Virus genome (UHGV): UHGV-0105325
DNA length: 48,561 nt
From: a virus
Reading direction: 5' to 3' (one strand)
Shown here: positions 6,803 through 45,540 of the stretch, piece by piece
Layout of the letters: every line of letters starts with the position of its first letter
How positions within the stretch are numbered: position 1 is the stretch's first letter
Notes under the pieces: model-generated
What the model was told of the DNA's origin: nothing
Database searches by the model: none
The model's input: only the letters and a program-made list of their open reading frames with translations
Program-made: the position numbers and the translations under genes

Positions 6803-8253
6803 TGGCTAATGTGATTACGCAGTTTCTGGTCGGTCTCGGTATCTCTTACGATGGTAAAGGTGCTGAACAGGCTGAAAAAGATATCGACAATCTCGGCAAA
6901 TCGGCAGAGCAAGCCGGTAGTCAGATGGACGATGTCGGCAAGTCCCTCGACAAGGGCGTCAAAACCGGTGTAGAAAATTCAAAATCACGCATTATGAGTC
7001 TGGTCACCACATTCAAAGCTGCCGGACTTGCGATGTCCGGTGTTGCCGCGGGTGTCGGTGCAGCGTGGGCGTTTGAGTCGAAAAAAGCGCAACAGGCTTA
7101 CGACCTAAACAACCAGCTTGTAACTAGTCAGTTCGGTCCAACTGAGGTTTACGGACTTGGCGCATTAGCCGAACAGCGTGGGGGTGACCGGCAGGCAACG
7201 ACAAACAGCCTTTTAAACATTGAGCGTGGGATTAACCGCATTCAGACCGGTGACGTCGGGATGATTCAGCAACTGGCGGTTGCGGGAATCCGTGTCGATA
7301 ATCCCACGGGGCGTACACGCGAGGATATTTACAGTGACATCGCCGGGCAGTTCCAGCGCCTCGATATGACGCGTCAGAGCAACGTAGCGGATATTTTAGG
7401 CCTCGACCCGGCCACCGTCAGAGTATGGCAGGAGTTCGGCGCTACAACGCTGGAAGTGTCAAAAGCCCGTGCCGCTGAAATGGGGTACACTGAACAGCAC
7501 AATGCCGCGCTGAACGCAATCAATCAGACTATGATTGACACTCAACAAAAGTTCGAGAGTCTGGGTAACACCATTGCCGACATGCTCGTACCAGATATTA
7601 CCAGTCTGAGTAATACCATATCCGGTGTCGTAGGTAGACTTGATAACTGGTTGAAAACCAGCTCCTTTGGGAAAGATGTGTCCGAACACGGGATATATAA
7701 GGCATATGAAAATGCAATGCAGTCCATCCCGTGGATTAAGAAAATGGATGACTGGATTAACAACTTGGGTACAAATGCCAATGATGCGACAATTAATAAT
7801 AAATCATCCACTGTTGAAACTCCTGCCTGGGGTGGTACACCGTTCTGGGCAAAGCGGGAGAATTGGGTCAACGATTCTGATAACAGAACGGTAGATGATG
7901 ACACACTCTCCGCATTACGTCGAAATAATTCACTGTATAACCCGGTCAATAACCACATCGTCAATAACACAACGAATACTGAGCAACTCCCACAGCGGGA
8001 GAATTCATCTCCGGTTAACGACGGTTCATACGGTGCCGAAGTGAGTCCGGTGACTGATAACTATGCGCAGCAAAGTCGGCAGATGAGTCGGATTATGGAG
8101 TCCATAAACCGTCCGATTCAACTTAACGGCAATTTCACCACACAGGGCGACGTAATACTGGATGGTAACGCAATTGGTCGTTATACCGTCAACCATCTTG
8201 AGACGCAGGTATATCCGCAGGCAATTGACCAGACCCGGCAAAGGAGTTACTGA
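6802..8253 (+). CDS. tail tape measure protein
   Basis: 483 aa, Ala/Gly/Gln-rich and helical, lying between chaperone-position genes and baseplate genes. Confidence 0.6.
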   Translation: MANVITQFLVGLGISYDGKGAEQAEKDIDNLGKSAEQAGSQMDDVGKSLDKGVKTGVENSKSRIMSLVTTFKAAGLAMSGVAAGVGAAWAFESKKAQQAYDLNNQLVTSQFGPTEVYGLGALAEQRGGDRQATTNSLLNIERGINRIQTGDVGMIQQLAVAGIRVDNPTGRTREDIYSDIAGQFQRLDMTRQSNVADILGLDPATVRVWQEFGATTLEVSKARAAEMGYTEQHNAALNAINQTMIDTQQKFESLGNTIADMLVPDITSLSNTISGVVGRLDNWLKTSSFGKDVSEHGIYKAYENAMQSIPWIKKMDDWINNLGTNANDATINNKSSTVETPAWGGTPFWAKRENWVNDSDNRTVDDDTLSALRRNNSLYNPVNNHIVNNTTNTEQLPQRENSSPVNDGSYGAEVSPVTDNYAQQSRQMSRIMESINRPIQLNGNFTTQGDVILDGNAIGRYTVNHLETQVYPQAIDQTRQRSY

Positions 8254-8255
8254 CA

Positions 8256-9680
8256 ATGGATTTGCGCCAGTATGAAATACTCATTGACACAAAGAATTTC
8301 ATCACTCAGTCGTACCCGATGCTCCGGTGCTCGTTCGATGTAACGACGTATACCGGCGACAGCCTGAGTACCTGTGAATTCCGCTTGTGGAACCTTGCAC
8401 CGACAACGAAGATTGAACCGAATCAGACCGTTGTTTTTCGCGCCGGGTATCAGTCACGCATTGGTCAGATTTTTACCGGGTTTGTCACCAACGTTTTCAC
8501 CATTCGTGACGGTACTGACATCATCACCCGCGTGACATGTCGTAGCGGTAGCAACGTGCTCGACGGCGGGACAACGAGTGCAAGTTTTGGTAAGAGCGTG
8601 ACATTGTTTGACGTCTTGACCAGCCTCGCACAGGACTGGTCGAAACCGTTATATCTCGTCAATAGTGTGGACAAATTTACCTCTATTGTCATGGCTGGAG
8701 GCTATAATGTTAGCTCCGATATCAGTAAGGAACTTGACATTCTGGCCAAAGCATACGGTTTTGAATGGCATTTGTACGCCGGGCAGGTGTTCGTCGGATT
8801 CCCATCTGATGACCGTAAAGCCACGCCTGTCAAAATCAGTTCCGCAACCGGGATGATTGATGCGCCCACGCTTCACGGCGGCATTGATGGTGTATTCTGT
8901 GACGTTAAAATGCGTCTTGACCCCCGTATGACACCCGCATCGGTACTTAATATTGAATCGAAATGGCTTAAATTCGATTTCGGAGCAGTGGAGTTCCAGA
9001 CAACCGTCGACGCTAAACTGGAAGGTGACTGGAACGTTCAGACCATTCAGCATACTGGAGACACACATGGCCCTGACTGGTACACATTTGTCAAAGCTGT
9101 GCGCGCCGGGTCAATGGATACCACCACGACAAATAGTGATGTTGGTAATCGTCTTATTTACGGGCGTGTTGGCGTGCAGGGTGAGGATGCCAGTCAGCAG
9201 CAGGATTTCCGTACCGAGGTGCGTAAACTTGGACAAAGTCTGGGTATCAGTCCCAACTGGATTATGGCTGTAATATCTGCAGAGTCTAACTTCAATCCAC
9301 AGTCAAAGAACAGCAAATCCGGCGCGGTAGGACTGATTCAGTTTACTAACGCCGGGTGGACAAGTGCGTTTCAGACTAAATACGGACGCAATAAAAATGT
9401 CATCCTGTCAATGACTGCAGCTGAACAGGTAAGAGGTCCGATTACTGATTATTTTAATCAGTACAAAGGGCGTTACAAAACAATGGGTGACGTGTACATG
9501 GCTGTATTCAGTCCGGCATTCATCGGTAAACCTTCCACAACCGTGATGTACTCATCACCTTCTACAGCGTACAATCAGAACGCAGGGCTTGACACGGACC
9601 ATAAAGGTTACATTACTGTCGGCGACGTGTGGCGACGTGTTGAGGAACGATTCAGGCAAGGTAAGGCGTACATGTTATGA
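8256..9680 (+). CDS. tail/baseplate protein with C-terminal lytic transglycosylase (SLT) domain
   Basis: C-terminal motif AVISAESNFNPQSKNSKSGAVGLIQF matches the SLT catalytic-Glu/ES motif. Confidence 0.6.
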   Translation: MDLRQYEILIDTKNFITQSYPMLRCSFDVTTYTGDSLSTCEFRLWNLAPTTKIEPNQTVVFRAGYQSRIGQIFTGFVTNVFTIRDGTDIITRVTCRSGSNVLDGGTTSASFGKSVTLFDVLTSLAQDWSKPLYLVNSVDKFTSIVMAGGYNVSSDISKELDILAKAYGFEWHLYAGQVFVGFPSDDRKATPVKISSATGMIDAPTLHGGIDGVFCDVKMRLDPRMTPASVLNIESKWLKFDFGAVEFQTTVDAKLEGDWNVQTIQHTGDTHGPDWYTFVKAVRAGSMDTTTTNSDVGNRLIYGRVGVQGEDASQQQDFRTEVRKLGQSLGISPNWIMAVISAESNFNPQSKNSKSGAVGLIQFTNAGWTSAFQTKYGRNKNVILSMTAAEQVRGPITDYFNQYKGRYKTMGDVYMAVFSPAFIGKPSTTVMYSSPSTAYNQNAGLDTDHKGYITVGDVWRRVEERFRQGKAYML

Positions 9681-18442: not shown

Positions 18443-18655
18443 TTACCATTCCGCAAGCAGGACGGGGTCGATTGCATCATTGAAACGTTCAATGGGGTCA
18501 TAGAAGAATAAGTTCTCGCAGTTTTGACAAACTGTAATTTCCTTTTCATCATCGTCCCCGTGCGTACCGATGGCGACACCCTTATCGTTTACTAACCAAC
18601 ATTTCAAACCGCACTCAGGGTCATTTCTGTCAACTGCTTTGTATAATTCACTCAT
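18443..18655 (-). CDS. small Cys-containing protein
   Basis: 70 aa. First gene after the promoter at 18680-18718. Two CxxC-like pairs. Confidence 0.55.
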   Translation of the reverse strand: MSELYKAVDRNDPECGLKCWLVNDKGVAIGTHGDDDEKEITVCQNCENLFFYDPIERFNDAIDPVLLAEW

Positions 18656-18679
18656 CTTCTCTACCCTCTCTGTTGTTGA

Positions 18680-18718
18680 TATGACTAACTCTAAACTACT
18701 TTGACGCGCTCGTCAACG
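18680..18718 (-). promoter_or_regulatory. early promoter with palindrome TGACGcgctCGTCA (18702-18715); -35 TTGACG, -10 TAGAGT
   Basis: Leader is identical to that of the 5850 promoter (tagagttagtcatatcaacaacag). Confidence 0.7.
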
Positions 18719-19289
18719 GTAAAACTAACTTTTCCGCTTCTTTCACGTAATACTCGTAGTCCAGACTACTCCAGTCGAAGTCTTTAGCGTCGGCGCACTC
18801 TGTTACCTTCCATCCGACATACATCCCGGTTTCACGTACTGCATCATGCTTGCTGCGACTCTTCGTGTGGATACGCTCGTCCCACGGTGTACCGATGCTG
18901 TCAAGTTCTCCCGGTTGACCAGTAATCTCACGCATTACCGCGTTGTACACGTCGTCTTTGATACCATTCTTGCGCTTCCATGTACCCGGTACACCGGTTG
19001 GCGGTAACAGTTTGACCAGTGACCCACCGTTACGCGAGATAAACACACGTGTGGTATTCTGCATCTCCTGTTCAGCGCCCCATTCCGGCCAGCGCATAAC
19101 CAGACGTGCAGAACGCGGTACTTTAGCGCGCAACATAAAGTCGAACGGGTCACGATGCTGCGTGATGAACGTGCGGATGTCCTCACCGTATACGAGGGCG
19201 GCTTCGGCAGCGCGGGCAATAATCATTGCCGATGGGTCCTGATGCCACTGGTATTTGTACTCGTAACACCCTTTTCTTTTAATTTTCAT
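18696..19289 (-). CDS. probable C-terminal (thumb) segment of the family-B DNA polymerase; carries a TPWDERIH module
   Basis: Begins KIKRKGCYEYKY (KxY-like) right after the HNH gene that follows the polymerase N-part. Shares a ~45-aa module with ORF 24133-25041. Confidence 0.45.
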   Translation of the reverse strand: MKIKRKGCYEYKYQWHQDPSAMIIARAAEAALVYGEDIRTFITQHRDPFDFMLRAKVPRSARLVMRWPEWGAEQEMQNTTRVFISRNGGSLVKLLPPTGVPGTWKRKNGIKDDVYNAVMREITGQPGELDSIGTPWDERIHTKSRSKHDAVRETGMYVGWKVTECADAKDFDWSSLDYEYYVKEAEKLVLPLTSASK

Positions 19290-19824
19290 ATTTCCATGAC
19301 TCCCGCTTTGCGTGATTGGGGTGATAATTTAAATCGCGCTCAGCTTGCTTGCGAACGGCGATTGCCTCATTCTTATCTCTGAATGTGCCCAAGTGATAAC
19401 GAACCCCTTCATGTGATATACGTACTAACCATCCCGCACCATTTCTTGTAACACCTCTGCACCCGGAGGTGTTATCTTTGCGTTCACCCTGATTCCTGGC
19501 ATTCTCAAAAGCCGTAACAAGACGTAAATTTTCCCAGCGGTTATCCTTTCGATTACCATTGATATGGTCAATTTCACCATTCGGATGTTCACCCGTCATA
19601 TATAACCACACGAGGCGATGTACGAGAAACATCAACCCAAAACAATTCGTCCAGTAATAGCCTCTATTATTACAATCCCTTATTGGTGAATATATTGATT
19701 TGGGTTTACCATAACTATCGTATCTCTTTATTCTTGCGAATTCCCCAGTCGTGGGATTATAAGTGAAATGTTCTTTTAATAACTCCAGAGACATTTCTTC
19801 TCTACATTTCAATTTCCACATCAT
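19279..19824 (-). CDS. HNH homing endonuclease with AP2 DNA-binding domain
   Basis: HNH motif EIDHINGNRKDNRWENLRLVT...N plus AP2 GVTRNGAGWLVRISHEGVRYHLGTF. AT-rich. Confidence 0.75.
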   Translation of the reverse strand: MMWKLKCREEMSLELLKEHFTYNPTTGEFARIKRYDSYGKPKSIYSPIRDCNNRGYYWTNCFGLMFLVHRLVWLYMTGEHPNGEIDHINGNRKDNRWENLRLVTAFENARNQGERKDNTSGCRGVTRNGAGWLVRISHEGVRYHLGTFRDKNEAIAVRKQAERDLNYHPNHAKRESWKYEN

Positions 19825-19879
19825 TGTCTCATACCGTTGCGATTTGTTTATACCATCCTAAATTTTCTTTTGTTCGATG

Positions 19880-21403
19880 TCAACAAATGGTCATTATGTA
19901 ATTGTTCACATCACGCTGATAAAGAGATTTTACTTCGTCCGTCTCAAGTCCCAACATTGTGTCTTTCTCCCATTCCGCACAAATAGATTCAACTAACGAA
20001 TCATATTGTTCGGGGTAGTACATGACGGCCCCGTCAGTATTCGATTGCGGGATAATCATGTCTGGAACTCGCGTTATCAATCTATCAATCAACATTGCCA
20101 AACAAAGTTGCCCCGTAATGGTGATACTCAGAAGACACTTGTGGTCGCAGAATGGGCTGAATTTACTCCCCATGTTCCCGAATGTGCCGTTGAGGGCGAG
20201 TTTCAATGCGGCATCAACTGTTTTATCTCCCGCTCGCTTAGCATCACGGCGACGAATGAACAGTTGTTCGTATACATCACAAAAAGTTTCACTAAGGTGT
20301 TCCGGATAGTACCTGTTCTTTATACTAATGGACGGGTACATGCTTGTAACATCTTTATTTTTCAATAACTTACCGTTGCCGGAATGCACAACGTAGTTCG
20401 GAATACTACTGTGAATACCTCCCAATCCGAACGAATATTCGACACCATCGACCACGACGGTCATATCACTAAACACACCTTTTGTGGTCAGCAATTCGTC
20501 CTGCTGTTTCTTTGTGAGTACAACCCCACGAATGCGTTCCAGAATTTGATTGAACTCCGGTCGTTCGAATTTGATATAAGGGGGAATGCAATCTGCGAGA
20601 GCAATACGTTCACGAATGGTTACCCCGGAGCAATCTACCCCGGCCTTTTCCAGTTCGTGAACGAATATATCTTTGCCGATTTTTGTATCGGCGTGGTTCA
20701 TAAAGTTACGTCCGTATTGCTTTGTCAGTTCCTCGCGGAAATGAATTTTGTCGAGTGAACGTACAAAGAATTTAAGTGTTTCGCGAACGTCGTGCTTGTT
20801 GTATGCGATGAGAATGTCTTTCTGTGTATCGTCCAGCATCATTCCGACCAGGAATGGCAGGTCTTTTACGTTAGGGGACTGCATACCCACTTCCAACGCC
20901 TTCAGACTAGTGCGTCGGGCTTTATTATCGAAGTGGTTTATCTTGTACAGGTCAATCTGCTCGAAAATCTGATCGCGGTCCCATATAATTTCTGGCCACT
21001 GACCTTCGGGCTTAATCTGTGATTGCGCTTTTGCGTAAATCTGTTCCAGCGTACAACCCGGTGCATTGACCACGTAGTGCAGCACCGGATAGTCGAATGC
21101 CAGGTTATTAAATCCAATCCCACGGGCCATACTACGTCCCAGGTTGAACACAAATTCGATTAATTGCGGCTGCTCGTTTTTGCGGTCACTGATTTCGAAG
21201 ATTAACTCCATACCCGTCGCAGCGTGAATAAATGAGGCGGTAAATATATTCGGATATGTCTCGATGTCCCACCCCCAGTCCCGTGGGTCCAGTGGTGCAA
21301 TACTGGAGAACGCCGAATCAGCCCCACAGTGAGGGCAATTGTGGAGGTCAGCGGGATAATTTTTACCGCAAGTTGCATCCTCACATTTCGATAAATAGTG
21401 CAT
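19880..21403 (-). CDS. family-B DNA polymerase, N-terminal exonuclease + palm part (507 aa)
   Basis: N-terminal CxxC zinc finger. Exo I DIET, Exo II NNLAFD, Exo III YNKHD. Motif A DVTSMYPSI, motif B KLALNGTFG, motif C-like NTDG. The ORF ends 55 aa after motif C, i.e. before the expected KxY/thumb. Confidence 0.7.
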   Translation of the reverse strand: MHYLSKCEDATCGKNYPADLHNCPHCGADSAFSSIAPLDPRDWGWDIETYPNIFTASFIHAATGMELIFEISDRKNEQPQLIEFVFNLGRSMARGIGFNNLAFDYPVLHYVVNAPGCTLEQIYAKAQSQIKPEGQWPEIIWDRDQIFEQIDLYKINHFDNKARRTSLKALEVGMQSPNVKDLPFLVGMMLDDTQKDILIAYNKHDVRETLKFFVRSLDKIHFREELTKQYGRNFMNHADTKIGKDIFVHELEKAGVDCSGVTIRERIALADCIPPYIKFERPEFNQILERIRGVVLTKKQQDELLTTKGVFSDMTVVVDGVEYSFGLGGIHSSIPNYVVHSGNGKLLKNKDVTSMYPSISIKNRYYPEHLSETFCDVYEQLFIRRRDAKRAGDKTVDAALKLALNGTFGNMGSKFSPFCDHKCLLSITITGQLCLAMLIDRLITRVPDMIIPQSNTDGAVMYYPEQYDSLVESICAEWEKDTMLGLETDEVKSLYQRDVNNYIMTIC

Positions 21404-21416
21404 CTCTGTTCCTCTC

Positions 21417-21443
21417 TGTAAGAAAAGCCCCAGTTAAGGGGCT
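21417..21443 (-). terminator. rho-independent terminator (gcccc agttaa ggggc + U-run on minus strand)
   Basis: Hairpin followed by TTTTCTT on the minus strand, just upstream of the polymerase RBS. Confidence 0.6.
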
Positions 21444-21617
21444 AAACGATAATACTGTCACCTACTTTTAAAGCGAAGGCTTTGTTACGGTCTTTGTACC
21501 ACCTTTCGGTTGTGGATACGTGACCCTAGCAATTATATTCAATTTCAACACGCCACGTCTGATATTCTTCACACCAGACCGGCGTACCGACAGAAGTCAC
21601 GGTGGCGTCCAGACTGT

Positions 21618-21782
21618 TCATTGTCCAAACTCCTCCAGCGCTTCGTGTATGATGACAATTGAGTCATATTCACCACGTTTCTCATTGTAGAACTGACATT
21701 CTGCGCCGATGGTTGATGTGCGGATAACCACCATCACCGGTCCGCCACTTTTAAGAACTACCAGGTCGCCTACTCCGAACAT
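21618..21782 (-). CDS. YodC/DUF2158-like small protein (54 aa)
   Basis: MFGVGDLVVLKSGGPVMVV matches the YodC-type signature. ATGA-coupled to the upstream micro-ORF. Not in the ORF track. Confidence 0.5.
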   Translation of the reverse strand: MFGVGDLVVLKSGGPVMVVIRTSTIGAECQFYNEKRGEYDSIVIIHEALEEFGQ

Positions 21783-21901
21783 TTATTAAGCCCTCTCTGG
21801 TTGATGTATTCCCGGCGTTGCTCCTGCACCTGTTTAATAGCCTTTTCCAGTTCGGCTAACTTGTCATCAAACTGTTTTAGTCGTTGGTCTTGGTCGGTCA
21901 T
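21770..21901 (-). CDS. 43-aa coiled-coil micro-protein
   Basis: AGAGGG RBS; sequence MTDQDQRLKQFDDKLAELEKAIKQVQEQRREYINQRG. Its stop overlaps the next start. Confidence 0.35.
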   Translation of the reverse strand: MTDQDQRLKQFDDKLAELEKAIKQVQEQRREYINQRGLNKCSE

Positions 21902-21950
21902 GATGCACCCTCTCTGTTGAGTTACCCCGGCTCGCACCGGGGCGTTGTGG

Positions 21951-22763
21951 TTATGCTACTTTCTGACAGTGTTGTGCGATTAACTCTTCGCTCCAGCCAG
22001 GCATACTGAGTAACTGTGCTTTGGTATACACCGTGCCGTTGTAACTGTACTTCTCTTCGACAACCGGCGGAGGTGTTACCAGCAGGTCAGTTGCTGGCGG
22101 AGGTGTTGCGGGTGCCGGAGCAGCTGGGGTCGGGGTTGGTGCCATCTGTGCGGGTGCACTACCGCCGAACACACTTGCAGCATCCGGACCACTACCTTCA
22201 CGAACAATTGCTTCGCCAGGACGTGACAGTTCAAGCAGGTTCGGGTTCAGATACACGCCCGGAGTTTTGGACGGTTTATTACCTTTCGCCACGATGTTCA
22301 CACGAACGTAATCACCGAGTTTAATAGCATTTGCGTCCTGAATCGCATCGAGCGGGTTATATTTGCCGACATGATAACAGTTGTACGGAATGCGGGTGTT
22401 CAGGTGTAAGACCCAGTGGCCGCGTTTGTACGGGTCACTGTTCGGCGCGTGACCGGCTTTGTTCGGGATGTCGCTATCACCGTCGACCACCTTCCACGAG
22501 AAGTCTGCGCGGCGAGTAGTGCCAGCGTCATAACCGTTTTCAGCGTCCAGTGCCGCCATTACGATTTGTTTACCCCATTCAGTATCTTTCCAGTCTGCTT
22601 CACCGGTTTTGGGAATTGCGATACCGATGTAAATTTCTTTAACCGGTTGACCATCTTTACCGATAACCGGCTGCTTTGTGGCATCATCAGTGCGTACATT
22701 TTGCTTCAGCGGATGACCGTGAATCAGGCGAGCGACAGGGGTAACGAAAGTAAATTGAGCCAT
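21951..22763 (-). CDS. DUF2815-like phage ssDNA-binding / annealing protein
   Basis: 270 aa. N-terminus MAQFTFVTPVARLIHGH... Adjacent to a RecB/Cas4-like nuclease (a commonly paired module). C-terminal Pro/Ala-rich tail. Confidence 0.45.
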   Translation of the reverse strand: MAQFTFVTPVARLIHGHPLKQNVRTDDATKQPVIGKDGQPVKEIYIGIAIPKTGEADWKDTEWGKQIVMAALDAENGYDAGTTRRADFSWKVVDGDSDIPNKAGHAPNSDPYKRGHWVLHLNTRIPYNCYHVGKYNPLDAIQDANAIKLGDYVRVNIVAKGNKPSKTPGVYLNPNLLELSRPGEAIVREGSGPDAASVFGGSAPAQMAPTPTPAAPAPATPPPATDLLVTPPPVVEEKYSYNGTVYTKAQLLSMPGWSEELIAQHCQKVA

Positions 22764-39163: not shown

Positions 39164-39184
39164 CTCTCGTCTCCTGTGTTAATA

Positions 39185-39220
39185 TGTACACTCTACATCA
39201 TACTGACGGAGCCGTCAAGC
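39185..39220 (-). promoter_or_regulatory. promoter with palindrome TGACGgagcCGTCA (39204-39217); -10 TAGAGT
   Basis: Family geometry. Antisense to the head operon. Confidence 0.65.
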
Positions 39221-39985
39221 ATGTCACGACAAACAGAGCTAAATTATTATCGCCAGCTAAAACAGGTTGCCCAACTTGTTCGTGAGGATGTGGACGCCAA
39301 CATCGTACCACTGGTGAAACAGCTTGCGCCGGAGTACACCGCCGACGGCTGGAGCGATACCATCACCTCGGCGATTAACCAGTTGCTCACACGGTGGCTT
39401 GGTGCGTTTGCGCGTCGTCAGGCTGAGACCATCGCGTCACAGTTTGTACAGACTGCGGCGAAGGATAACGCCCGTTCATTTGCTATCAATCTGTACGGCG
39501 GCGATACACAGTTACAGGAATATCTCAGCGCGGCATCGTATCAGAATGCCAAACTCATTCAGTCTATTCCGACTCAGTATCTGGAGCAGGTGCAGAACAT
39601 TGTCATGACCAATATGCGTAACGGTATGCGCCCCAGTTACATTGAGGAAGCGCTCGTTAAACAATTTGGTATCACGGAACGTCGTGCTAAACTAATTGCC
39701 GCAGACCAGTATGGAAAGATACAGGGTGACATGAATCGTATTCGTCAAGTTAGTTCCGGCATTGAGTATTTCACGTGGGTAACGTCACAGGATGAGCGGG
39801 TACGTCATAGCCATGTGGAGGTCGCCAAACGTGATGTGGGGTATGGTCCGGGCGTATTTCGATGGGATGATTTACCGGTTGTCGATGGTGTGCCGACATT
39901 TCCAGGACAACCGGTGAGGTGTAGGTGTATAGCCCGCGCAACCCCGCGGGCTAAAGTGGAAAGATACATCAATTCGAAGAAATGA
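39221..39985 (+). CDS. head morphogenesis protein (Mu F / SPP1 gp7-like)
   Basis: Start set at MSRQTE, downstream of the promoter element. In the position typical after a portal gene. Confidence 0.5.
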   Translation: MSRQTELNYYRQLKQVAQLVREDVDANIVPLVKQLAPEYTADGWSDTITSAINQLLTRWLGAFARRQAETIASQFVQTAAKDNARSFAINLYGGDTQLQEYLSAASYQNAKLIQSIPTQYLEQVQNIVMTNMRNGMRPSYIEEALVKQFGITERRAKLIAADQYGKIQGDMNRIRQVSSGIEYFTWVTSQDERVRHSHVEVAKRDVGYGPGVFRWDDLPVVDGVPTFPGQPVRCRCIARATPRAKVERYINSKK

Positions 39986-40538
39986 AACGATTACTTCCAT
40001 GATTCTCACTGAATCCATAACGATTCTCAGCAGATTTACGTAAACAACATGCCTCGAAGAAATCGGGAGTAATCCCGAGATGTTTCGTCTTTCCCATTAC
40101 CCCAATTTGGGCAACGTAACGACCATTTTGACAATGTATGATTACACCCGGTATGCCCGTTGCATTGTTCTTACGTCTACGCATGTTCCGACTATTCTCC
40201 AGAGGTGTGGCGTTCCTCAAATTACACAATCTGTTGTCTGTGGGGTCACCATTCACATGATCGATTACCTCTGGTAAAACACCGTAAACATAAAGCCAAA
40301 CGATACGATGAAACATGTAGTCTTTATCGAGAAGTCGAATATATTTATAATATTTACCGTTCCAGTGATTCTTTTTGGTACTTCCAGCCTCTTTACCTGC
40401 ATAACGAGTGTTCCATTTCTTCCAGTCTCTATCGCTGGTGAACATTGAACGAGGTCGGATGTTGTGAGTGAACAAACCGGTCGTTGGGTTGTAAGTCAAA
40501 GTCAACCGTGCAAGTTCGTACAGTTCTTTCTCAGTCAT
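39969..40538 (-). CDS. HNH homing endonuclease with AP2 domain
   Basis: HNH motif VIDHVNGDPTDNRLCNLRNATPLEN plus AP2 GVIIHCQNGRYVAQIGVMGKTKHLGI. AT-rich. Confidence 0.7.
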   Translation of the reverse strand: MTEKELYELARLTLTYNPTTGLFTHNIRPRSMFTSDRDWKKWNTRYAGKEAGSTKKNHWNGKYYKYIRLLDKDYMFHRIVWLYVYGVLPEVIDHVNGDPTDNRLCNLRNATPLENSRNMRRRKNNATGIPGVIIHCQNGRYVAQIGVMGKTKHLGITPDFFEACCLRKSAENRYGFSENHGSNRFISSN

Positions 40539-41240: not shown

Positions 41241-41441
41241 TCACTCCTGCGGCGGCTCGGGTAATGGTTGCCAGTGGGTTACAAAGCCGCCATTTTCGCT
41301 TTCAACCCACCACCGGTCGCCATTCCACGAACAGTTCCATTGATAGTGTGATTTCCCCAGGTCATTTTGCTCTTCTACATAGCACCAGTAACGGCCGGCA
41401 TCGCCCGGCATCCGCTCACTACACTTAATCCAGTTTGCCAT
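41241..41441 (-). CDS. DUF551-like small protein
   Basis: Trp-rich; C-terminus HWQPLPEPP is typical of the DUF551 family. Confidence 0.5.
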   Translation of the reverse strand: MANWIKCSERMPGDAGRYWCYVEEQNDLGKSHYQWNCSWNGDRWWVESENGGFVTHWQPLPEPPQE

Positions 41442-42228
41442 ACAATGTCCCCACTCGTTTCAAATCTCGCTGTGCGTGACAGCTGTAATTACCATCGTCC
41501 CATTTTATACCTAAAACATTGAGCGAAAACTTCACAACGTCGTCCAATATGAACCACTCCGTACATCCGTCAAATCCCGAATAGTTGGTGGAATTTACCA
41601 CTGAATGTATCGAGTGCAACGTTTTCTCCAACAATTGTACGAACGCTCCTTCCGCGTTAAGTGTGCCAACCACATCGAAACCGAAGGGTGTTTCACGCCT
41701 TAAAACCGTCAGTCGGTCTTCAAAATTATTCGAGATACCTATCTTTATTGCATTTTCGTCAAACCGTTTCAGAATGTATAGTGTACCCGGTATGGTGCTA
41801 TCGAACCCCTTCCTAGCACATCCCGGACACCTCCTACCCATCATGAATTTGTTGTAGTTTGTGGTTTTCCATTCACCATGTAACGCGCATTTGAGGTGTA
41901 GATAGGTTCTACAACCACGCCACTGTTCCAATTTGACCAATGATGTTAAAGATTTTTCACTTTTAAGAATTCCCTTAACGTTCGAAATAACCTCATCCTG
42001 CGTTAAACGTTTAGTGCTGGAACAGGCGGGACATGTCCGACCATCGTTGATGAACTTGTTGTATGTAGTGCTAAGCCATTCACCGTGTAAATCGCAATTC
42101 ATTTTCAACTTTGTGGATACTCCGCGCCATTCCCCAACAAATCCAACGAACTTGTAAGGTGTTCCCACTGTTCTTTCTCTTAGTTTCTCAATGGCATCCT
42201 TTTCTGGTATTGGAAGTGCCATAATCAC
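41425..42228 (-). CDS. homing-endonuclease-like protein: 2 zinc-ribbon repeats + T5orf172 (GIY-YIG-like) domain
   Basis: Repeat units C.LHGEW...CPxC twice. C-terminal GTLYILKRFDENAIKIGISNNFEDRL matches the T5orf172 core. Confidence 0.6.
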   Translation of the reverse strand: MIMALPIPEKDAIEKLRERTVGTPYKFVGFVGEWRGVSTKLKMNCDLHGEWLSTTYNKFINDGRTCPACSSTKRLTQDEVISNVKGILKSEKSLTSLVKLEQWRGCRTYLHLKCALHGEWKTTNYNKFMMGRRCPGCARKGFDSTIPGTLYILKRFDENAIKIGISNNFEDRLTVLRRETPFGFDVVGTLNAEGAFVQLLEKTLHSIHSVVNSTNYSGFDGCTEWFILDDVVKFSLNVLGIKWDDGNYSCHAQRDLKRVGTLYGKLD

Positions 42229-44505: not shown

Positions 44506-45540
44506 ATGGATAAGTTAAACAGCGTTGTACTTGACGCACAGACTATCGCGGGTAACCCGTGGGTTAAACAGTATCTGGACGGTCAGAACGCTATCAACGT
44601 TCCGGCTGAATTCCGTGATGCTGACGGCGGTATCGCGTTCTATATCTCTCAGCTGGCACAGATTGAGCAGACTATCTATGAGACGCCGTATGCGGATATC
44701 ACCTATCTGCAGGACATCCCGGTTGTATCCGGCATCCCGGAACATGCGAACCACTGGGTGTATCGGAGCTTCGATGGGCGCACTATTGGGAAGTTCATCG
44801 GCGCAAACGCATCCGACCTGCCGCGTGTTGCTCAGTCTGCGAAACTCCACACTGTACCTCTGAACTACGGCGGCATCGAGTGCCACTATAGTATTGACGA
44901 GCTGCGCACCACTGCGTCTCAGAACATGCCGATTGACACCATGCAGCAGCAGCTGGCATATCGTGGCTACGAAGAGCACAGTCAGAAAGTGGCTTACTTC
45001 GGTGACTCACAGCTGGGAATGGCCGGTCTGTTCAACAACTCGAATGTGACGACCACTTCGGCGACTGTTGACTACACCACCGCCACTGGTCAAGAGTTGT
45101 TCGACATGCTCAATGACCCACTGTTTGACATCATCAAACTGTCCAAAAATTTCCATGTTCCGAATACCGTCCGTGTGTTCCCGGACCTGTGGAAACGCAT
45201 GAACAGCCTGCTGATGACTGGTTACTCCGACACCACCGTGATGGAGTTTTTCAAAACCAACAACGCGTACACTCTGATGACCGGTCAGGAAATCGACATC
45301 GCAATCCGTTTCCAGCTGACCGCTGCGGAACTGGCCGCAGGTGGTGTGTCCAACGGTTCAAAAGACCGTGTGTTCATCTACGAGAAGAACGACCGCAACC
45401 TGGGTGTTGCCAAGCCGATTCCTTTCCGTATGCTGGCACCGCAGAATAAGGGTCTGGCTGTAACTGTACCAGCAGAGTACAAAATTTCAGGTGTGGAAAT
45501 TCGCTATCCTTTGAGTGCGATCTACCTCGATATGCTGTAA
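44506..45540 (+). CDS. major capsid protein (DUF2184-like)
   Basis: 344 aa. Position and a strong terminator immediately downstream fit an abundant late product. Confidence 0.55.
   Translation: MDKLNSVVLDAQTIAGNPWVKQYLDGQNAINVPAEFRDADGGIAFYISQLAQIEQTIYETPYADITYLQDIPVVSGIPEHANHWVYRSFDGRTIGKFIGANASDLPRVAQSAKLHTVPLNYGGIECHYSIDELRTTASQNMPIDTMQQQLAYRGYEEHSQKVAYFGDSQLGMAGLFNNSNVTTTSATVDYTTATGQELFDMLNDPLFDIIKLSKNFHVPNTVRVFPDLWKRMNSLLMTGYSDTTVMEFFKTNNAYTLMTGQEIDIAIRFQLTAAELAAGGVSNGSKDRVFIYEKNDRNLGVAKPIPFRMLAPQNKGLAVTVPAEYKISGVEIRYPLSAIYLDML

Follow-up and report, generated by a model that had tools for sequence, protein, structure and literature searches.

In T4-related phages, genes for replicative family-B DNA polymerases (PolBs) are known to occur as two cistrons. 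The gp43 gene is split in the Aeromonas/Acinetobacter phages 25, 44RR, 31, 65, and 133, in some of which a seg-like endonuclease gene is placed between the cistrons, as outlined in the accounts of Petrov et al. (2006, 2010; PMC2988022, PMC3061061). For phage 25, the two gp43 products were found to co-purify and to have activity (PMC2988022), and the split site is an insertion hotspot at the fingertip of the fingers domain (PMC3061061). Here, we describe the polymerase locus of the virus genome UHGV-0105325 (48,561 nucleotides (nt); hereafter "the window", i.e. the whole stretch of DNA that was analysed), a Jedunavirus-type Klebsiella phage, in which a PolB gene is divided into two parts by a free-standing HNH-AP2 homing-endonuclease gene. 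As in the T4-type gp43 phages, a family-B replicative polymerase of a phage would be produced from two cistrons. However, T4-type gp43 is split at the fingertip, whereas the window polymerase is split at a hairpin after the equivalent of the KxY motif, and therefore the whole thumb would be a separate subunit. The window polymerase also belongs to another PolB clade (Jedunavirus type, with NTDG as motif C and an N-terminal zinc ribbon), and the enzymes found at its split site are of the HNH-AP2, T5orf172, and GIY-YIG types.

Other phage genes are divided in a comparable manner. The ribonucleotide reductase gene nrdA of Aeh1, split by mobE ("genes-in-pieces"; Friedrich et al. 2007, as cited in PMC2988022), and the topoisomerase genes 39/60 of T4, split by mobA, are both treated in PMC2988022, in which mobE-type splits are presented as having no intron or intein, the two polypeptides reassembling into an active enzyme. 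The window locus resembles Aeh1 nrdA in that a free-standing HNH gene is located within a conserved and functionally important part of an essential phage gene. It differs in the host gene, in the function of the split enzyme (demonstrated for nrdA, deduced for the window polymerase), in the many unrelated endonucleases that occupy one site, and in the recurrence of the split across a whole clade. Among PolBs outside the T4-type phages, that of Methanobacterium thermoautotrophicum is naturally split in the palm, its two genes being 85 kb apart with no endonuclease (Kelman et al. 1999; PMC3061061); an engineered Pfu polymerase cut in the fingers is fully active, and the natural split of the RM378 PolB is at the N/palm boundary (PMC3061061). 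The M. thermoautotrophicum and split Pfu enzymes agree with the window locus in that a family-B polymerase tolerates division into two non-covalently associated chains and stays active, but neither detaches the thumb at the KxY hairpin. The mechanism ("genes-in-pieces") is already known; what is new here is the PolB clade, the position at the KxY hairpin, and the unusually rich turnover of endonucleases.

The region concerned, which is 94-97% identical to the corresponding regions of Jedunavirus Klebsiella phages (among them JD001, KpVB3, and the RCIP isolates), contains three open reading frames (ORFs), all of which are on the minus (-) strand, as are the other features of the window mentioned below. 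The ORF at 19880..21403 codes for the N fragment of the polymerase (507 amino acids (aa); exonuclease, palm, and fingers; phrog_1252, 9e-162), the ORF at 19279..19824 for the free-standing HNH-AP2 homing endonuclease (181 aa; HNH_3, 1.5e-18; phrog_99, 5.8e-54), and the ORF at 18696..19289 for the C fragment (197 aa; the thumb preceded by the second hairpin strand, KIKRKG; phrog_15833, 5.5e-94). A spacer of 55 nt separates the N-fragment stop from the endonuclease start. The endonuclease and C-fragment ORFs overlap by 11 nt, because the TAA of the endonuclease sits, in the other frame, in the polymerase codons AAA-ATT-AAA. The three ORFs, including this overlap, had been noticed in a preliminary description of the window and are present as it gave them. 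Because the arrangement recurs in more than 25 independent genomes, it is not an effect of chance or assembly.

In relatives without the endonuclease the polymerase gene is fused rather than present as two ORFs, and this agrees with what the preliminary description had supposed. Escherichia phage ZCEC13 has, at the same genomic position, one polymerase of 704 aa, which equals the sum of the two window fragments (507 + 197 aa). The N fragment is 83-84% identical to residues 1-503 of the ZCEC13 protein, and the C fragment is 91% identical to residues 509-704; the window ORFs span the ZCEC13 polymerase end to end, with only Q-V-G-T-D-G absent, between DVNNYI and KIKRKG. The ZCEC13-type intact allele reads ...GATGTGAACAACTATATTCAGGTTGGTACGGACGGTAAAATCAAGCG... 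at this loop. The PHROG profile phrog_1252 (663 positions) is likewise shared between the two products, with the N fragment covering positions 23-505 (9e-162) and the C fragment positions 512-654 (2e-34). The inserted endonuclease cassette was delimited by DNA alignment with ZCEC13 and JD001 and by a survey of junctions; it comprises 608 nt (19287..19894), which stand in place of the 18 nt (QVGTDG, the hairpin tip) of uninterrupted alleles. The cassette contributes the tail of the N fragment (MTIC and the stop codon), the endonuclease gene, a Shine-Dalgarno (SD)-like element GGGAG, and the ATG of the C fragment. The window locus is a gene in pieces: the two halves, contiguous in relatives, are separated by an endonuclease ORF that has a start and a stop of its own.

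Conservation of the polymerase motifs was evaluated with an alignment of 50 uninterrupted homologues, the least similar at 48% identity, and comparison with solved PolBs was performed by HMMER alignment to 1s5j (Sulfolobus PolB1), 8s84, and KOD-type PolBs. The N fragment has the Exo I motif DIET (21257..21268; D46 and E48 invariant), the Exo II motif NNLAFD (21092..21109; N99, N100, and D104 invariant), the Exo III motif YNKHD (20789..20803; Y201, N202, and D205 invariant), the polymerase motif A DVTSMYPS (20330..20353; D351, V352, S354, Y356, and P357 invariant), the motif B KLALNGTFG (20177..20203; K401, N405, and G409 invariant; matching KxxxNxxYG of 1s5j and KOD), and the motif C variant NTDG (20030..20041), which is aligned to the DTDS/DTDG of solved PolBs. 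These six motifs had been listed in this order in the preliminary description; all were located, and all are invariant in the alignment. It had placed the end of the N fragment 55 residues past NTDG and before any KxY, and in these two respects it has to be corrected: the distance is 49 residues, and in the alignment to archaeal PolBs the KxY-equivalent VNNY (residues 499-502) is inside the N fragment. The strand concerned, DVNNYI (19895..19912; N499 and Y501 invariant in the 50 homologues), consists of the last polymerase-derived residues of the N fragment.

The uninterrupted polymerase matches 1s5j with 7.8e-5 over a range spanning motif B, motif C, and KxY. VNNY is aligned with KKNY of 1s5j and KKKY of 8s84, the Tyr being retained and the Lys replaced by Asn, and the whole segment VNNY-IQVGTDG-KIKRKG pairs with KKNY-FGVYQDG-KVDIKG of a solved PolB. 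The stretch GKIKRKG...HQDPS..., shared between the two window ORFs, aligns to the start of the archaeal PolB thumb, and the C fragment is aligned to KOD residues from about 600 onward; we take the thumb boundary of the KOD polymerase in its published structure to be at about residue 588-591. The thumb homology that the preliminary description had expected of the C ORF is present, as an alignment to archaeal PolB that is continuous over KxY and the start of the thumb. Family models added little: the Pfam DNA_pol_B_exo2 match to the N fragment is weak (0.011), and NCBIfam gave weak Pol II matches only, those Pol II models matching the motif-B region (4e-6). P0011, an uninterrupted homologue with 82% identity to the N fragment, was modelled with AlphaFold2 from the 50-sequence alignment; the model had a predicted local distance difference test score (pLDDT) of 90 and a predicted template modelling score (pTM) of 0.83. 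Its best Foldseek matches in the PDB were the PolBs of 9°N, KOD, and Tgo, together with E. coli Pol II and Pol alpha (3e-15 to 1e-12, probability 1.00). In this model, the split point corresponds to the loop 506-509, between the strands 500-505 (the DVNNYI strand) and 510-513. From the exonuclease motifs, motifs A and B, the KxY and thumb alignment, and the overall fold modelled for the homologue, the window gene is identified as that of a family-B polymerase. The cut falls at the palm/thumb hairpin just past the KxY-equivalent, with exonuclease, palm, and fingers on the N fragment and the thumb on the C fragment.

The N fragment also starts with a zinc-ribbon-like segment of four cysteines (CxxxxC...CxxC; CEDATCGKNYPADLHNCPHCG, 21323..21385), in which the 50 homologues all retain C23 and C26 and nearly all retain C7 and C12. 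This Cys4 start is kept across the clade and is unusual among PolBs; presumably because of it, homologues are named "Nop10" in two source databases.

As for motif C, the second Asp is retained and the first is replaced by Asn (NTDG versus DTDS/DTDG), as the preliminary description had stated. N454-T455-D456-G457 is invariant in the 50 uninterrupted homologues, NTDG is present in all surveyed loci, and 178 of the 179 clade proteins of at least 480 aa have it, split and unsplit alike. The Asn is therefore unrelated to the split and is not a consequence of it. In ternary complexes of PolBs, the direct metal ligands are the second Asp of DTD and the Asp of motif A; on this basis, an active enzyme could plausibly have Asn as the first residue of the motif, and by this analogy the NTDG polymerase may be catalytically active.

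Both pieces of the polymerase are maintained by selection. Among split genomes, the N fragment has a ratio of nonsynonymous to synonymous differences per site (pN/pS) of 0.06-0.21 and the C fragment one of 0.04-0.26, indicating purifying selection, and in every one of 23 split loci the C ORF has stayed intact (194-198 aa). For the endonuclease, the corresponding ratio of substitution rates (dN/dS) is 0.02-0.08 in unsaturated pairs (strong purifying selection); note that pS exceeds 0.75 in the most divergent HNH pairs, in which dS is saturated and only the raw pN/pS can be given. The cultured relative BUCT_49532, whose genome is complete, has the split gene as its sole annotated DNA polymerase, beside a primase, a helicase, and an exonuclease, and a neighbouring protein resembling those that bind single-stranded DNA (SSBs) is annotated as such in JD001 and KpV79. 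Split alleles are carried by cultured plaque-forming phages including JD001, KpV79, BUCT_49532, and PVN06.

The same site was then compared among 53 loci from GenBank and IMG/VR, in which three states were found: uninterrupted (with a loop of 18-24 nt), occupied by the present HNH lineage, or occupied by T5orf172/MUG113 ORFs of 276-296 aa with treble-clef zinc-finger repeats and a nuclease domain of the GIY-YIG superfamily. Individual phages add to this diversity: the site of BUCT_49532 has a second HNH-AP2 lineage, 33% identical to the window endonuclease (Pfam AP2, 5.6e-10), that of KpTDp1 has a canonical GIY-YIG enzyme with a different junction (LQISK*), and that of RCIP0093 has a shortened T5orf172 form. 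At least four endonuclease types are present at one site, namely two HNH-AP2 lineages, the T5orf172 type, and GIY-YIG. HNH or GIY-YIG(+NUMOD3) genes also divide the polymerase at this point in more distant members of the clade (46-57% identical), one of which is PVN06, a cultured phage of Edwardsiella; the IMG/VR phages L044, L049, and L050 (about 43% identical) are divided there as well. An exhaustive search with the C fragment, considering the best 150 representatives of 50%-identity clusters, gave at least 31 stand-alone thumbs (proteins starting 1-10 residues before K-x-K-R-K-G) and about 49 full-length proteins; of the complete genes in these best clade representatives, roughly one in three is split at the hairpin.

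Some cluster representatives start at other points, which may be further split sites or artefacts of gene calling: P0121, P0128, P0159, P0195, P0226, and P0231 start with M-T/S-ITINGQL (before motif C), P0214, P0251, and P0269 at motif B, and P0134, P0163, and P0191 at motif C. L064, which has an M-TITINGQL start, is a 1.4-kb contig with an uninformative upstream ORF. The polymerase genes of the distant relatives L040 and L043-L052 (IMG/VR) have an extra 130-290 nt around the position of N-fragment residue 314, which may be an in-frame domain insertion or a further interruption. By tblastn (hits H40-H46, H49, H50, and H53), the polymerase was matched in two pieces in the Rheinheimera Barba phages, the Acinetobacter phages B9 and BS46, and the Flavobacterium phage FPSV-D5; the FPSV-D5 match spans about 2.8 kb versus 1.8 kb in its relative FpV4, which suggests further interrupted alleles.

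The distribution of the cassette and the identity of the flanking DNA were considered together. The same cassette (97-98% identical) is present in only 5 of 71 related GenBank phages, many relatives being uninterrupted. JD001 is 99.885% identical to the window (3 mismatches in 2609 nt) from position 22500 down to 19892, which is the edge of the cassette; past 19892 it has a T5orf172-type gene instead, and its next polymerase segment is 86% identical to that of the window. Against phages with the same HNH gene, identity climbs from 87-95% to 99-100% in the 500 nt beside the cassette, while for relatives without the endonuclease values of 93-100% give way to 49-77% in the proximal 750 nt of the N-fragment gene. 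In addition, the HNH of the window is 67-68% identical to those of PVN06 and L061, whereas the adjacent polymerase segment is only 52-55% identical. The breakpoint, the identity gradients, and the patchy distribution are the patterns that would be expected of homing with co-conversion, to which ordinary recombination at a shared junction could also have contributed. A sharp mosaic boundary is seen at about 20650 (nt 750 of the N-fragment gene), with relatives lacking the endonuclease diverging toward the cassette.

The closest solved relative of the endonuclease is I-HmuI (1u3e; 8.7e-5 with the single sequence and 1.4e-9 with the homologue profile), which we take to be an HNH nicking homing endonuclease encoded in a group I intron of the DNA polymerase gene of Bacillus phage SPO1; that host gene is a family-A polymerase gene. 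In the two enzymes alike, an HNH_3-type catalytic core precedes a region for DNA binding at the C-terminus, and each is encoded in a phage DNA polymerase gene. The window endonuclease differs in being free-standing, in its family-B host gene, and in its AP2-like domain for DNA binding. Its HNH_3 match (PF13392) exceeds the cut-off of the family, and its DH...N...N core aligns with the HNH core of I-HmuI. The catalytic motif EIDHINGNRKDNRWENLRLVTAFENARN is at 19492..19575, with D86, H87, N91, N95, N99, N108, and N111 invariant among eight homologues and paralogues. The AP2-like domain (residues 119-165; 19339..19461) was recognized by comparing the eight-homologue profile with AP2/ERF structures, in which 7wq5 (WRI1; 2.4e-4), 7et4 (TEM1; 7.4e-4), and also 5wx9 and 1gcc (ERF096 and AtERF1) were matched. 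Pfam AP2 gave no match on the single endonuclease sequence or on its isolated C-terminal 71 aa, and for the AP2 part a single-sequence PDB search gave chance matches to T7 primase only. The assignment to HNH-AP2 in the preliminary description is in line with these results, for the HNH part by Pfam and for the AP2 part by the homologue profile only.

The window contains other ORFs of this kind. A second HNH-AP2-type ORF at 39969-40538 (-) (189 aa), adjoining a 269-aa ORF at 39176-39985, is 34% identical both to the polymerase-site HNH and to the type-2 HNH-AP2 of BUCT_49532, and an ORF at 41425-42228 (-) (267 aa) combines zinc-finger repeats with a C-terminus resembling T5orf172, its identity to the polymerase-site endonuclease of KpV79 being 33% (E 1e-26). 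The window genome therefore has at least three homing-endonuclease-like genes. BUCT_49532 (L054) has, besides the polymerase-site gene, four more annotated endonuclease genes (one Hef-like and three HNH, at 7581-9161, 21321-21902, 45037-45513, and 48627-49490), and Jedunaviruses are rich in homing-endonuclease-like genes.

Candidate signals for expression of the downstream cistrons are found in the cassette. A consensus scan detected a sigma-70-like promoter box, TTGACA-17 nt-TAGGAT, at 19855..19883, overlapping the N-fragment stop and upstream of the endonuclease gene. TTGAC(A/T)-16/17 nt-TAnnnT recurs in this position in each of the nine HNH cassettes of the lineage that were examined, despite diverged spacers, and the box may serve as a promoter. 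The SD-like GGGAG (19300..19304) is 10 nt upstream of the C-fragment ATG, within the 3' end of the endonuclease ORF, and GGGAGTC(A/T)TGGAAATATG is shared without change by all Jedunavirus-type HNH cassettes, including those in which the HNH has only 70% identity. A different layout with the same purpose is seen in the T5orf172-type and type-2 HNH cassettes: the stop of the N fragment overlaps the start of the endonuclease in the sequence ATGA, and a GTG located 6 nt past GGAGG opens the C fragment. Every cassette type furnishes a start signal for the thumb, which argues that the thumb is separately translated and needed. Upstream of the polymerase gene, about 20 nt before its start codon, there is a terminator-like GC hairpin with a T-run (21426-21443 (-)), and a rho-independent terminator is annotated at the equivalent place in the KpV79 record; no promoter-like site was found between the 21426-21443 hairpin and the polymerase gene.

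We consider it highly probable that the replicative PolB gene was cut into two cistrons by the HNH-AP2 cassette, that the two chains reassemble, and that the cassette homes. The cassette would have entered the beta-hairpin between palm and thumb, at its tip, removing six loop codons. The N and C fragments would then be translated as separate polypeptides, the latter either off a promoter within the cassette or through coupling to the stop codon of the endonuclease, and would reassociate non-covalently, probably through re-pairing of the two hairpin strands. During co-infection, the endonuclease would cut or nick intact alleles near the loop, around ...AACTATATTCAGGTTGGTACGGACGGTAAAATC..., and repair off the cassette-bearing genome would copy the cassette together with flanking polymerase sequence. 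This reading brings together the anatomy of the locus, the uninterrupted homologues, the PolB fold, the lack of an intron or intein, the selection on the three ORFs, the recurrence of the split, and the breakpoints at the cassette. Several points weigh against it. The fold was modelled on the uninterrupted P0011 rather than on the two window chains; part of the mosaic pattern could reflect ordinary homologous recombination instead of homing; the promoter is a match to the consensus and nothing else, with a -10 box in the window that fits four of six positions; and the distance of 10 nt from the SD-like element to the ATG is rather long. Separate translation, assembly of the heterodimer, and the activity and target of the endonuclease are what we infer from the sequences, and no published description of a split Jedunavirus-type polymerase was found in the literature on JD001, KpV52, KpV79, and Jedunavirus.

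Other explanations would have the two halves joined before or after translation. Group I introns with HNH endonucleases are classically found in the DNA polymerase genes of phages, and the closest solved relative of the window enzyme, I-HmuI, is presumably such an intron enzyme; the 608 nt might accordingly be a group I or group II intron carrying an endonuclease ORF, whose splicing would restore a continuous polymerase mRNA. However, a search of 18500-21600 against Rfam with permissive filters and E up to 10 gave no Intron_gpI or group II match, only two chance-level matches to snoRNA and miRNA models. The non-coding part of the cassette is limited to 55 nt, and there is none in the T5orf172, GIY-YIG, and type-2 HNH cassettes (ATGA overlap); the cassettes at this site, being unrelated in sequence, have no ribozyme core in common, and the C fragment retains its own conserved SD and start codon. 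We regard an intron as extremely unlikely, in agreement with the preliminary description, in which no splicing was expected. Joining could also take place after translation, by a split intein that would make one covalent polymerase from the two halves; such fractured genes, with split inteins around a free-standing endonuclease gene, are documented in metagenomes (PMC2677866). The non-homologous sequence at the window junction is a tail of four residues (MTIC) on the N fragment and an initiator Met only on the C fragment, so that neither an N-intein of about 100 aa nor a C-intein of about 35 aa would fit; no intein/Hint family was found with Pfam, and we give this explanation next to no probability. 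Translational bypassing was rejected on size (gap of 608-900 nt; tails of four and one residues).

It may also be asked whether the divided gene works and whether the cassette is still mobile. The Asn of motif C might hint at an unusual or weakened active site; the split could have inactivated the polymerase and left the C ORF as a decaying remnant, replication being performed by the N fragment alone or by a host polymerase. This seems very unlikely to us, since the C ORF is intact and constrained in every split locus (see above), its SD and start codon are kept or re-created in every cassette type, many cultured plaque-forming phages carry split alleles, NTDG is equally universal in uninterrupted alleles, and the phage retains its own primase, helicase, and SSB. 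Less easily dismissed, although still unlikely, is that the gene works in two pieces but the endonuclease is a fixed or domesticated passenger and the mosaic pattern a product of ordinary recombination. Jedunavirus genomes are generally mosaic, and unrelated endonuclease ORFs have identical junctions (IMVIE*/ATGA upstream and GGAGG-GTG downstream), which suggests exchange of cassettes in an already split gene rather than fresh invasions. On the other side are the intact HNH catalytic residues and low dN/dS of the endonuclease, the sporadic distribution among the 71 GenBank records, the JD001 breakpoint exactly at the cassette edge together with the peak of identity beside it, and the HNH lineage being better conserved between phages than the adjacent part of the polymerases that contain it.

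In an extension of the preferred reading of a split, reassembling polymerase with a homing cassette, the hairpin might be a standing slot for cassettes, its conserved junctions furnishing stop, SD, and start, in which unrelated endonucleases replace one another and in which the two-subunit polymerase is put to use by the phage or by the cassette. This may operate through control of the thumb supply by the cassette promoter, or through incompatibility of the core and thumb subunits when phages co-infect, which would bias inheritance in the manner of marker exclusion. We think this extension quite unlikely as a whole: the evidence from the site covers the slot and the turnover of endonucleases, and a functional benefit of a detachable thumb is its speculative part.

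The split affects how these genomes are read. Several GenBank records annotate "DNA polymerase" twice with an endonuclease between, while both the C fragment and the endonuclease are listed as hypothetical in the closest GenBank phages bearing the cassette; annotation pipelines should therefore merge the fragments. Because the 3' half of the polymerase gene is mosaic, polymerase-based phylogenies of the Jedunavirus group are distorted. A natural split that detaches the thumb would be useful for polymerase engineering and for understanding how the domains of PolBs dock. With at least four endonuclease types in one loop and sharp breakpoints, in phages that are otherwise 85-99% identical and easily grown on Klebsiella, the locus would provide a tractable system for homing, for competition and replacement among endonucleases, and for co-conversion tracts.

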